From IMG/VR virus record IMGVR_UViG_3300019776_000212, positions 32,212-96,211 of that record: a stretch of DNA of 64,000 bases, one strand, 5' to 3'. Source of the DNA: a virus. The notes under the pieces were generated by a model. The model saw nothing but the letters and a program-made list of their open reading frames with translations, was not told where the DNA came from and made no database searches. Of the stretch, positions 60,166 through 64,000 are shown piece by piece (position 1 is the stretch's first letter; each line of letters opens with the position of its first letter). Position numbers and translations under genes: made by a program.

Positions 60166-60255
60166 TGGTGCGTCATGGTCGGAATCGAACCACGCAGTCG
60201 AAGGACACCGAGTTTACAGCCCGGCGGGAATCCCAGTTCCCATAAATCACGACGC
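60166..60255 (-). tRNA. tRNA-Tyr(GTA), atypical D/T arms
   Basis: CTGTAAA loop, long variable arm, CCA. Confidence 0.75.
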
Positions 60256-60335: not shown

Positions 60336-60853
60336 ATTTTACTAATTTCTCTGATGAACTCATCTTTGAAGTGGATTGGAACCCACTCACCACTTTCATC
60401 AGATACTGAGAACTTTTCGAGAAGAAGCTTTTCGGCTTGCCTTCTGTCGAGTGTAAACTCGTAATGAGTTACACTGTATGCTCTATATGGATCATATGTT
60501 TGGAACTGAGACAGCCTCTTTGCAAGGTCTGTAGTCATTCCAATCTTACAATGGTCTGGGAATGCGGGGTTCTCTATAAGATAGACAACTCCAGCTGGTA
60601 TCTCTGTAAGCTTCGCACCAAGATACACGTTATGTTTTATGAGGGTCCTACCTGCTAGCTTCCTAGCAAGTCGTTTGTCAGACGATCTCATCCTACCGTT
60701 ACCAGCTGTAAACAGCTCTCCGTAGGTTTGTACATAATCGGAGAGAATTTCCTCCGTTATCGTGTATGTTGTGTCTGGGATTTTACCAGACTTGTGAAGC
60801 GAATCAAGGACTTTTAACTCCTTGTTAGAGAAACCTTCCACAGAACCTCCCAT
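60326..60853 (-). CDS. GIY-YIG (T5orf172-like) free-standing endonuclease
   Basis: GVVYLI...KIGMT.....RL..FQT.P...E...GEW; likely GTG start at 60841. Confidence 0.75.
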   Translation of the reverse strand: MGGSVEGFSNKELKVLDSLHKSGKIPDTTYTITEEILSDYVQTYGELFTAGNGRMRSSDKRLARKLAGRTLIKHNVYLGAKLTEIPAGVVYLIENPAFPDHCKIGMTTDLAKRLSQFQTYDPYRAYSVTHYEFTLDRRQAEKLLLEKFSVSDESGEWVPIHFKDEFIREISKIPV

Positions 60854-60874: not shown

Positions 60875-61050
60875 GCCCGTTACTTTTTGACTGCTCCACG
60901 GGGCCGGGACCAGAGATGCTGGATCACCTCCTTATATTGTGTGCACGCACACTATCAAGTTGGCTTACAATCTCACGATTGTGTTCTACAGCTTCTGTAA
61001 TGCACAGTTGTGGCGGACATCAGGGATGTATGGCCAATGTCGTGCATGTT
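60875..61050 (-). ncRNA. candidate ncRNA with 17-nt complement to the 16S rRNA 3' end
   Basis: TAAGGAGGTGATCCAGC at 60934-60918, no start codon downstream. Confidence 0.45.
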
Positions 61051-61053
61051 TGA

Positions 61054-61123
61054 TTTGAACGTGAGGCATGCTTGCTGGGATGTCCACTTAAGGAGGTCTG
61101 GGCTCTGATGCAGCACGTTCAAA
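61054..61123 (-). ncRNA. candidate hairpin RNA displaying anti-SD ACCUCCUUA
   Basis: 10-bp closing stem TTTGAACGTG/CACGTTCAAA. Confidence 0.45.
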
Positions 61124-61125
61124 TT

Positions 61126-61202
61126 TGTATTTGAATGGTTGGACTCGAACCAACGCACACCACTCCTGCGTGGCAGCTCTTCCGACTGAGCTTACATTCA
61201 AA
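61126..61202 (-). ncRNA. tRNA-like RNA with 6-nt anticodon loop, no CCA
   Basis: Canonical D and T arms; GCCAC-GCAGGA-GTGGT. Confidence 0.6.
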
Positions 61203-62259: not shown

Positions 62260-62391
62260 TTACTTACCCTGACGTTGTTTACCAGAGTAGGGATTCTTTT
62301 CTTTCAAGCCTTTATTCGGATGACCTTTAGAAGGTGTCTTCGAACGCTCAACTGGAGCATGTTCTTTGGTTGCATCATACGGCTTAGCCAT
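62260..62391 (-). CDS. small basic protein (43 aa)
   Basis: Manual: MAKPYDATKEHAPVERSKTPSKGHPNKGLKEKNPYSGKQRQGK; AAGGAG SD; promoter TTGACA-16-TACAAT near 62425-62452. Confidence 0.65.
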   Translation of the reverse strand: MAKPYDATKEHAPVERSKTPSKGHPNKGLKEKNPYSGKQRQGK

Positions 62392-62480
62392 CTTGTTGCT
62401 CTCCTTGTGTCTGTGTATATGCTCATTGTAGCAGGAAATTTACTCCTGTCAACAACTTTGTGAATCTTTTTTTTTTTATT

Positions 62481-62557
62481 TGGCAGCCCTGCATGGATTC
62501 GAACCATGTCTACAAACTTAGAAGGATTGTGTGCTAATTCCCTTACACTACAAGGCC
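62481..62557 (-). tRNA. tRNA-Arg(TCT)
   Basis: Cloverleaf, CCA. Confidence 0.88.
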
Positions 62558-62567
62558 ATATAAAATT

Positions 62568-62741
62568 GTACAGAGGTGTGCTATTACGCCAAAGGGAGAT
62601 TCAGCCTTACCGTTTCCGGGGTGCCTCTTCACTTTGCCAGTGTACGTCCCTCCACCCCACTACAGAGCTTCAACGAGCTGATAGTACACCTAGTCCCACT
62701 CTTTAAAGGATGGCTGCTTCTAAGCCCACCTTCCACTGTAC
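62568..62741 (-). ncRNA. 23S rRNA GTPase-associated-centre (uL11 site) mimic RNA
   Basis: AGGTGGGCTTAGAAGCAGCCATCCTTTAAAGAGTG...CGTAATAGCACAC, closed by GTACAG/CTGTAC. Confidence 0.7.
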
Positions 62742-62748
62742 TTTAAAT

Positions 62749-62824
62749 TGGCGGGCCACCAAGGAGTCGAACCTTGAACCTGAGGATTTGGAATCCACTG
62801 CTCTGCCAGTTGAGCTAATGACCC
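62749..62824 (-). tRNA. tRNA-Trp(CCA)
   Basis: Cloverleaf, CCA. Confidence 0.9.
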
Positions 62825-62929
62825 TGAATTCGAGGGAGACATTTATAGCACGCTGTCTCCTGAGCGTCAACATGCAAGAGTTGGTTTCTTGCACACATCC
62901 CAAGGCGCTTGGAGTCTCAGGTATGTTCT

Positions 62930-63857: not shown

Positions 63858-63946
63858 TGGAGGCGCGTGAAGGAATCGAACCCTTGCCGTATCTCTACAG
63901 CAGCCGGGGGTTCAAGCCCCGTTTGTACCCTTTGTAGCCACACGCC
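63858..63946 (-). tRNA. tRNA-Ser(TGA)
   Basis: Long variable arm, TTCGA, CCA. Confidence 0.8.
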
Positions 63947-64000
63947 AGAAATTGTGAACTGCCCTTGCCAAGGGATTGACGGTGGACCTTGCCACTGCCC

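Follow-up and report, generated by a model that had tools for sequence, protein, structure and literature searches.

Why should a bacteriophage carry, between two of its tRNA genes, a stretch that reads like the GTPase-associated centre (GAC) of 23S rRNA? The GAC is among the most conserved and best-studied RNA domains, being where uL11 binds, where every translational GTPase docks and where the thiopeptides act. The phage genome examined here, of Pseudomonas type, is complete (96,211 bp, with terminal repeats) and holds the GAC-mimic element in a single copy. Within the window, by which we mean the whole 64,000-nt stretch of this genome that was analysed, the element occupies positions 62568-62741 of the minus strand; it is 174 nt long, non-coding and flanked on both sides by a tRNA gene, as read from the sequence and from ARAGORN. 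An earlier note on this DNA had quoted the minus-strand sequence lying between tRNA-Trp and tRNA-Arg, and it is present to the base. From 5' to 3' along the minus strand, with rRNA positions in E. coli numbering, the parts are as follows.

62842-62870, minus strand: promoter-like TTGACG-17-TATAAA upstream of tRNA-Trp (read from the sequence; uncertain)
62749-62824, minus strand: tRNA-Trp (cca), with encoded CCA and its 3' end 7 nt upstream of the element (ARAGORN; Rfam tRNA, 56.2 bits)
62742-62748, minus strand: AU-rich 5' spacer of 7 nt (AUUUAAA), from the tRNA-Trp CCA to the closing stem (sequence)
62733-62741, minus strand: 5' strand of the closing stem, GUACAGUGG, equivalent to 1047-1055; pairs with 62568-62576 with one U.U mismatch and replaces H42
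62698-62732, minus strand: equivalent of A1056-U1090, made up of the H43 hairpin and its 1067 loop, the junction pair U1082-A1086 and, of H44, the 5' strand (GAGU)
62590-62697, minus strand: 108-nt insert at the H44 internal loop
62694-62697 with 62594-62597, minus strand: helix P-i of the insert, GGGA with UCCC; covaries
62684-62690 with 62639-62645, minus strand: helix P-ii of the insert, GGUGUAC with GUACACU, around a variable apical region that has a hairpin at 62663-62680
62600-62633, minus strand: conserved module of the insert, AGUG..GGCACC-CCG-GAAA-CGG-UAAGGC..
62590-62593, minus strand: UUUG linker of the insert
62577-62589, minus strand: equivalent of G1091-A1103, comprising the H44 tip, the 1095 hexaloop (GCGUAAUAGC) and the family-specific A1101
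62568-62576, minus strand: 3' strand of the closing stem, CCUCUGUAC, equivalent to 1104-1112
62558-62567, minus strand: AU-rich 3' spacer of 10 nt (AAUUUUAUAU) ahead of the RNase P site of tRNA-Arg (sequence; ARAGORN)
62481-62557, minus strand: tRNA-Arg (tct), directly downstream (ARAGORN; Rfam tRNA, 50.2 bits)

Likeness to the 23S GTPase-associated centre

The 23S reference was the Salmonella LT2 record, whose segment 1051-1108 is identical to the E. coli sequence that the earlier note had given. The composite of the two ends of the element agrees with this rRNA at 44 of 58 positions (1051-1108) and, in the core (1056-1104), at 42 of 49. Positions 1062-1079, 1081-1088 and 1091-1100 are identical, and thus both the A1067 and the A1095 loops; the claim that had been made for these stretches holds, with the third beginning at 1091 rather than 1092. 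Three pairs, 1054-1105, 1058-1080 and 1090-1101, are changed on both sides relative to E. coli and Salmonella and can still pair, also as claimed. Likewise borne out are the new closing stem in place of H42 and the extra 108-nt domain within H44, closed by GGGA/UCCC. In the Rfam bacterial alignment positions 1088-1090 and 1101 form the internal loop of H44, and the insert enters exactly there, so that no base pair of the GAC is broken. The nucleotides concerned with the fold and with uL11 contact (U1060, A1088, G1059-C1079, A1077, the 1082-1086 pair and the 1067 and 1095 loops) are all present in the window, and across the family of related RNAs described below they are invariant or covarying.

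Compared with the Rfam bacterial consensus, 46 of the 49 core positions are equal, the differing ones being A1056, G1061 and A1101. That consensus has g1058-c1080 and GAguG, the G1058-C1080 pair and GAGU(G) being the commonest bacterial states, and Pseudomonas 23S also carries G1058-C1080. The earlier note had argued from the three compensated pairs that the fold is maintained by selection and is not a scrap of rRNA. A selected fold is supported by the family-wide covariation, while the argument from E. coli is weak: because the compensated pairs are also found in many bacteria, compensation relative to E. coli alone cannot exclude a captured scrap. Six of the 49 core positions differ from the GAC of Pseudomonas fragi 23S (1056, 1061, 1078, 1089, 1090 and 1101), and the family keeps GAGU and A1101 whatever the host. 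Tuning of the element to its host was considered and set aside, the window sharing G1058-C1080 with Pseudomonas and not 1078 or 1089-1090, which is no clear evidence of tuning. The resemblance to the GAC is far beyond chance, and the element is not a recent copy of host rRNA.

A search with the LSU models, which the earlier note had proposed, finds this likeness in the 5' half. The bacterial model (RF02541) gives a local match of 24 bits (E 9e-7) at model positions 1094-1147 only, below its gathering score of 50; over the Rfam LSU models the local matches to the 5' half lie at 21-26 bits (E 7e-5 to 3e-4 with archaeal LSU). At gathering level no Rfam family matches the element, and no rRNA sequence flanks it.

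A phage RNA family with a covarying fold

The BLASTN search for relatives that had also been proposed returned full-length relatives beside tRNA genes in the Pseudomonas phages UNO-G1W1, Astolliot, pf16 and Milchi and in Aeromonas phage 4_4572, that of UNO-G1W1 in the same Trp-X-Arg position, and covariation was found among the relatives. Matches to the 5' half in the jumbo phages XacN1, XaC1 and GAP32 proved on inspection to have the same split architecture with other inserts; XaC1 retains UUUGG though it was not selected by the search pattern. A family-specific pattern for the 3' junction matched at least 119 IMG/VR contigs, and about 90 of the IMG/VR contigs among the matches listed have a co-oriented 5' half, the conserved halves being separated by about 50-380 nt. 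The family samples comprise 89 unique sampled members among the matches listed, 76 of them with standard spacing and anchored by position.

A covariance model (R1, 170 positions) was built from 26 members outside the subfamily of the window and excluding the window sequence, one of which (L026) turned out to carry a related insert module. On the 64-kb window R1 has a sole hit, at exactly 62568-62741, with 104.4 bits (E 5.9e-31) and covering model positions 1-170 of 170. It scores the named phages at 85-105 bits and true 23S at 53-62 bits, and it matches 92 of 100 viral (IMG/VR) loci against eight of 100 cellular loci returned by the same pattern; a raw scan of cellular genomes with the pattern gave mostly chance hits. 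The split form of the GAC is phage-associated. The features by which members are recognised, namely the model match, a closing stem of free sequence, the split H44 and the phage and tRNA context, are all seen in the window, where U1090 and G1091 are separated by the insert closed by GGGA/UCCC, followed by UUUG, and where 1101 is A. This is a large family of phage GAC-mimic RNAs, for which searches of Rfam 15 and of the full-text literature found no description.

Several further observations were made among the matches. Six full-length members (78-104 bits) occur in bacterial assemblies or MAGs (L161, L190, L178, L221, L195 and L230), from Clostridiaceae, Ruminococcus, Acidimicrobiales, Neisseriaceae and others. 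Two IMG/VR contigs carry compact members of about 95 nt with inserts of about 25-30 nt and 72-76 bits with R1 (L018 201-295 and L044 1568-1662), and could serve well as minimal constructs in studies of binding or structure. In Astolliot a second H43-like hairpin stands alone about 320 nt upstream of the full element (L002 1173-1189; R1 positions 16-32, 15 bits, E 0.003), with a weaker counterpart at the same place in Milchi. One match, in Paenibacillus phage Pd_22F (L007; MZ092003.1, about 83.9-84.0 kb), was rejected as a member: it scores 62 bits with R1 and is contiguous, unsplit, real 23S sequence that extends well past the GAC with no annotated genes there, and represents host DNA or an assembly artefact.

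Because the search patterns themselves fixed some positions, 1063-1077 (within two mismatches), UUUGG, 1092-1095, 1098-1100 and 1102-1104 were excluded as evidence of conservation. Among the 76 position-anchored members 1058-1080 is paired in all 76 with all four Watson-Crick types, against a shuffle maximum of 44, while the neighbouring G1059-C1079, U1060 and A1077 are invariant. Pair 1057-1081 is AU in 68 and CG in eight; 1054-1105 is GC in 59, AU in 15 and UA in two; and the tertiary junction pair 1082-1086 is UA in 43, CG in 24 and AU in eight (n=76 throughout). G/A1056.A1103 and U1060.U1078 stay non-canonical across the family, as they are in rRNA. Position 1101, a U in rRNA, is A in 74 of the 76 and G in the other two. 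The closing stem is 70-100% paired per position over 8-9 bp, again with all four Watson-Crick types (n=76), and in register 0 only (0.78, compared with 0.30-0.47 when slid); its pairing decays beyond 1046/1113, and therefore the ends of the RNA are fixed. In the alignment of 26 members eight of the nine pairs of this stem (helix 1) have double changes.

Over the 26 independent members 91.8% of the cells are paired, compared with 67.4% when shuffled and 30-51% when slid, and the covariation score of 0.605 (0.147 shuffled) was reached by none of 500 shuffles. Alifold finds compensatory change at 18 of 34 pairs. The two innermost pairs closing the insert are paired in 26 of 26 members, with three to four pair types. 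Nearest-neighbour folding prefers a structure other than the GAC (-55.8 versus -37.5 kcal/mol) and the single-sequence thermodynamic z-score, at -0.58, is uninformative, both values coming from models that ignore the tertiary fold. The GAC fold of this RNA, with defined ends, is under selection at the RNA level. Some members vary at 1067, 1068, 1070, 1095 and 1096; this fits a constraint from the fold or from uL11, and means that the family replicates the site imperfectly.

The insert of the window is a three-way junction shared by 18 of the 89 unique sampled members, which form a subfamily. Helix P-i covaries over its 4 bp (GGGA/UCCC, AGAG/CUCU, GAAG/CUUC and GAGG/CCUC), and the P-ii arm is present in most members of the subfamily with unrelated sequences. 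The third arm is conserved as AGUR..G(G/U)CACC-CCG-[GNRA or UAAC]-YGG-UAAGG(C/A), and its basal helix shows G-C exchanged for U-A. Many wastewater contigs share only the conserved insert module and the 3' half, the habitat shares being too small to warrant statements about habitat. Over the family the insert length runs from about 25 to 380 nt, and the inserts are unrelated between subfamilies while the GAC part is conserved family-wide. No hairpin of the sarcin-ricin loop (SRL) type (AGUACGAGAGGACC-like) was found in the insert of the window (score against the SRL 11), and a match to the SRL consensus within two mismatches is absent from all 89 unique sampled members. Compared with the whole 23S, the insert scores 21 against a shuffle mean of 20.6, that is, without similarity. 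In the minimum free energy fold GGGGUGG of the insert pairs with the 3' strand of H43; a conserved switch strand was rejected, since the complementarity of insert to core is 5.73 bp versus 5.69 bp for shuffled inserts and the pairing is thus incidental.

Genomic context and expression

All 352 tRNA genes found within 3 kb of the 89 members are co-oriented with the element, and in 39 of the 89 a tRNA lies within 100 nt, often 0-10 nt away. In an all-against-all BLASTP of 2,238 neighbouring ORFs no protein recurred beside the element, the best cluster reaching five of the 89 loci. No uL11, bL12 or RelA/SpoT domain was found in the phage genome in searches that included positive controls, and therefore a partner of this kind would be a host protein.

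The tail genes are about 72% identical to those of Pseudomonas myophages of about 96 kb, such as XD2 and vB_PpuM-Amme-3. Searching complete genomes with R1 located the element in this phage and in UNO-G1W1, and in none of XD2, Amme-3 and UAVern. The array of XD2 is collinear (Leu-Gln-...-Trp-Arg-promoter-small ORF-Leu-Glu-Asp-Thr-...-Ile-Arg-Asn), and its tRNA-Trp and tRNA-Arg(tct) are 5 nt apart, so the element is a discrete accessory cassette of 191 nt; Amme-3 has neither the element nor that tRNA-Arg. The cassette behaves like a tRNA gene in the array and is dispensable in relatives.

Other features of the array were noted. Rfam calls an extra tRNA (40.6 bits; 61130-61201, minus strand) that is not listed by ARAGORN, and the tRNA-Sec model gives two long-arm tRNA-like hits, below threshold at 28-32 bits and also outside the ARAGORN list (60170-60255 and 63861-63947, minus strand); the array probably holds 18-20 tRNAs rather than 16. 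Within the array an ORF of 43 amino acids (MAKPYDATKEHAPVERSKTPSKGHPNKGLK...; 62260-62391, minus strand) stands behind a near-consensus promoter, TTGACA-16-TACAAT (62425-62452), and XD2 has the same promoter and ORF unit at the same place (MAKRPYDATKEHAPFERSGKPTKGHPNKGLKEK), so this is a conserved small protein. At 60918-60934 the minus-strand RNA UAAGGAGGUGAUCC(AGC) is a very long complement to the 3' end of 16S rRNA, about 70 nt upstream of an ORF start (AUGGGAGG... near 60852) and too far for a normal Shine-Dalgarno sequence. Directly after the Rfam-called tRNA there is a 70-nt hairpin (61054-61123, minus strand) closed by UUUGAACGUG/CACGUUCAAA and containing ACCUCCUUA, the sequence of the 16S 3' tail; the Rfam search found nothing rRNA-like there.

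A promoter upstream of tRNA-Trp is doubtful: the promoter scan made no call at the promoter-like TTGACG-17-TATAAA, and its hexamers are not kept in XD2, where the overlapping hairpin is. This hairpin, GGAGACA...UGUCUCC (62834-62860, minus strand), lies just 5' of tRNA-Trp and has a counterpart in XD2 (L262 1510-1538) within differing surrounding sequence. Rather than belonging to a promoter, it may signal processing or termination.

The metatranscriptome data are contigs only. One contig of 177 nt covers 62566-62722 with four differences, a weak hint of expression, since it has a depth of 2 and could derive from DNA. The RNA-seq depth at 62684-62731 is almost all true rRNA of other organisms, because the reads continue into rRNA sequence.

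Possible function and relation to known systems

It would seem most likely, at a probability of about 0.5, that the phage makes a discrete RNA of about 174 nt, processed by the tRNA pathway and adopting the GAC fold, which binds host uL11 off the ribosome. The RNA would be transcribed together with the phage tRNA array, and its position between tRNA-Trp and tRNA-Arg is, as had been pointed out, where tRNA processing would release it. RNase P would presumably free the 3' end by cutting at the 5' end of tRNA-Arg, and the 5' end may arise once tRNA-Trp has been matured at its 3' end and the remainder trimmed back as far as the 9-bp closing stem. The two ends of the RNA would then fold into the GAC tertiary domain, and the insert would project from the H44 internal loop as a three-way junction, one arm of which has a GNRA cap. 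By binding host uL11 off the ribosome this domain might withdraw the protein or compete with the ribosomal site; ribosomes poor in uL11 and weaker uL11-dependent signalling, such as RelA activation, are one possible outcome, and a uL11-RNA particle acting as a decoy is another. The U1060-A1088 pair is cited as the key contact of the C-terminal domain of uL11 (PMC2175356), and constraint in the family is among the strongest at this pair and in the minor-groove region of H43. Among the ideas in the earlier note, titration of L10(L12)4 ranks lowest in likelihood, since the RNA has a stem of free sequence in place of the H42 portion. Against uL11 capture it counts that a sponge for uL11 would face competition from tens of thousands of ribosomes, and that the close relatives XD2, Amme-3 and UAVern do without the element. 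More generally, the RNA probably works off the ribosome as an imitation of the GAC site.

Two explanations that deny the RNA this role are contradicted by the evidence and very improbable. The high identity to rRNA might suggest a functionless remnant of captured host rRNA, or an rRNA fragment split by an intron or intervening sequence, and true pieces of rRNA do sometimes occur in phage records, as in Paenibacillus phage Pd_22F. Against such a remnant stand the compensatory covariation of all variable helices, among them a closing stem for which rRNA has no counterpart, the recurrence of one architecture in viral rather than cellular loci (92 of 100 versus eight of 100), flanks that are tRNAs and not rRNA, and family-specific positions that differ from the Pseudomonas GAC. 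No intron, of group I, group II or intervening-sequence type, is indicated by an Rfam hit, and inserts as short as about 25-54 nt occur in the family. No more credible is a cis-regulatory leader that binds a ribosomal protein and controls a downstream gene, in the manner of the L10 or L1 leaders, despite the classical precedent of rRNA mimicry in autoregulatory mRNA leaders; here tRNA genes lie on both sides, at 7 and 10 nt, a tRNA being the gene that follows, conservation is lacking in the neighbouring ORFs (at best five of 89 loci), the phage has no detected uL11 or bL12 domain, and Rfam gave no leader match (L10_leader and the like) at E up to 10.

The other alternatives accept a working RNA and differ as to its target. 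The GAC might be imitated as bait for an enzyme or toxin that attacks it, an ADP-ribosyltransferase or RNase of a defence system or competitor, the RNA with or without uL11 soaking up the effector and sparing the ribosomes on phage mRNAs. Arrays of tRNA genes, such as the one in which the element sits, are a class of locus that offsets tRNA-targeting defences, and the element is accessory, with the patchy occurrence in close relatives that is often seen for counter-defence genes. A toxin documented to act on the H44 loop is Tre23, which ADP-ribosylates 23S within 1095-1098 and impairs the GTPase of EF-G (PMC8661411), and both GAC loops of the window are identical to rRNA. A substrate decoy neutralises a catalytic toxin poorly unless it binds tightly, and variation at 1067, 1070, 1095 and 1096 in part of the family is odd for bait. 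To our knowledge no GAC-targeting defence system is known, and literature searches found none. A toxin decoy is in our view unlikely but a serious rival to uL11 capture. It is more doubtful still that the RNA imitates the docking site for factors, binding, sequestering or redirecting translational GTPases (EF-G, the EF-Tu ternary complex, IF2, RF3, BipA or HflX) or RelA. The factor-contacting 1067 and 1095 loops are intact in the window, yet these are the loop positions that vary in the family, isolated GAC RNA is a weak binder of factors, and neither the SRL nor other 23S similarity is present in the insert, nor the SRL in any of the 89 sampled members. Equally improbable is that the insert is the working part, with a non-ribosomal target, and that the GAC fold does no more than provide a compact scaffold resistant to nucleases. 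The insert does have its own conserved module, GNRA-like tetraloop and covarying helices in 18 of 89 members and a size that spans about 25-380 nt; what is conserved family-wide is nevertheless the GAC part and not the inserts, which are unrelated between subfamilies, and the near-identity to the rRNA loops exceeds what a scaffold needs.

Capture of uL11 remains our preferred reading. We consider tentatively, as a little short of an even chance, a wider proposal in which the ribosomal stalk base is copied by many large phages as a free-standing ribonucleoprotein, its RNA capturing host uL11 and possibly also the factors or toxins that dock at the site, so rewiring translation control or the stringent response, or disarming ribosome-directed immunity. 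If true, this would be an unrecognised class of virus-host interaction, the mimicry of an rRNA functional centre. Should the RNA bind uL11 or another GAC ligand, it would provide a new viral route to tamper with translation, the stringent response or ribosome-directed toxins, and structural and antibiotic studies would gain a compact GAC variant that occurs naturally and has been tuned by evolution. Carriers are available in culture (UNO-G1W1, pf16, Astolliot, Milchi, Aeromonas 4_4572, XacN1, XaC1 and GAP32), as does a natural cassette-free relative, XD2, so that the proposal is directly testable.

Among known systems, the leaders of ribosomal protein mRNAs, for example the L10(L12)4 site of the rplJ leader (Rfam L10_leader), are likewise RNAs off the ribosome that imitate the site of a stalk-base protein. 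They are cis-acting, lie in the mRNA upstream of ribosomal protein genes and are only loosely rRNA-like, whereas the element is a near-exact copy, phage-borne, placed between tRNA genes and without a downstream target gene. The T4 species 1 and 2 RNAs are non-tRNA stable RNAs in a phage tRNA cluster, and they and the large phage-associated ncRNAs GOLLD and ROOL, which occur near tRNAs, are also co-oriented with tRNA genes and presumably released by tRNA processing, their function being unknown or only recently explored. In Rfam the element matches neither GOLLD- or ROOL-type families nor other RNA families of this sort, and we know of no T4 species 1/2-, GOLLD- or ROOL-type RNA reported to copy a ribosomal functional centre. 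Tre23 and the thiopeptides (thiostrepton, nosiheptide and micrococcin) recognise A1067 and A1095-A1098, which are unchanged in the element; they have no link to this phage, the sole connection being that the site is a known point of attack. The closest comparison is with the 23S GAC itself (E. coli 1051-1108, the 58-nt fragment), with which the element shares the helices, the non-canonical G/A.A and U.U pairs, the 1082-1086 junction pair and the same pattern of invariant and covarying positions. Unlike the 23S GAC, it is stand-alone and phage-encoded, with a 9-bp stem of free sequence in place of H42, a 108-nt domain and UUUG linker in the H44 internal loop, and A at position 1101 where rRNA has a conserved U.
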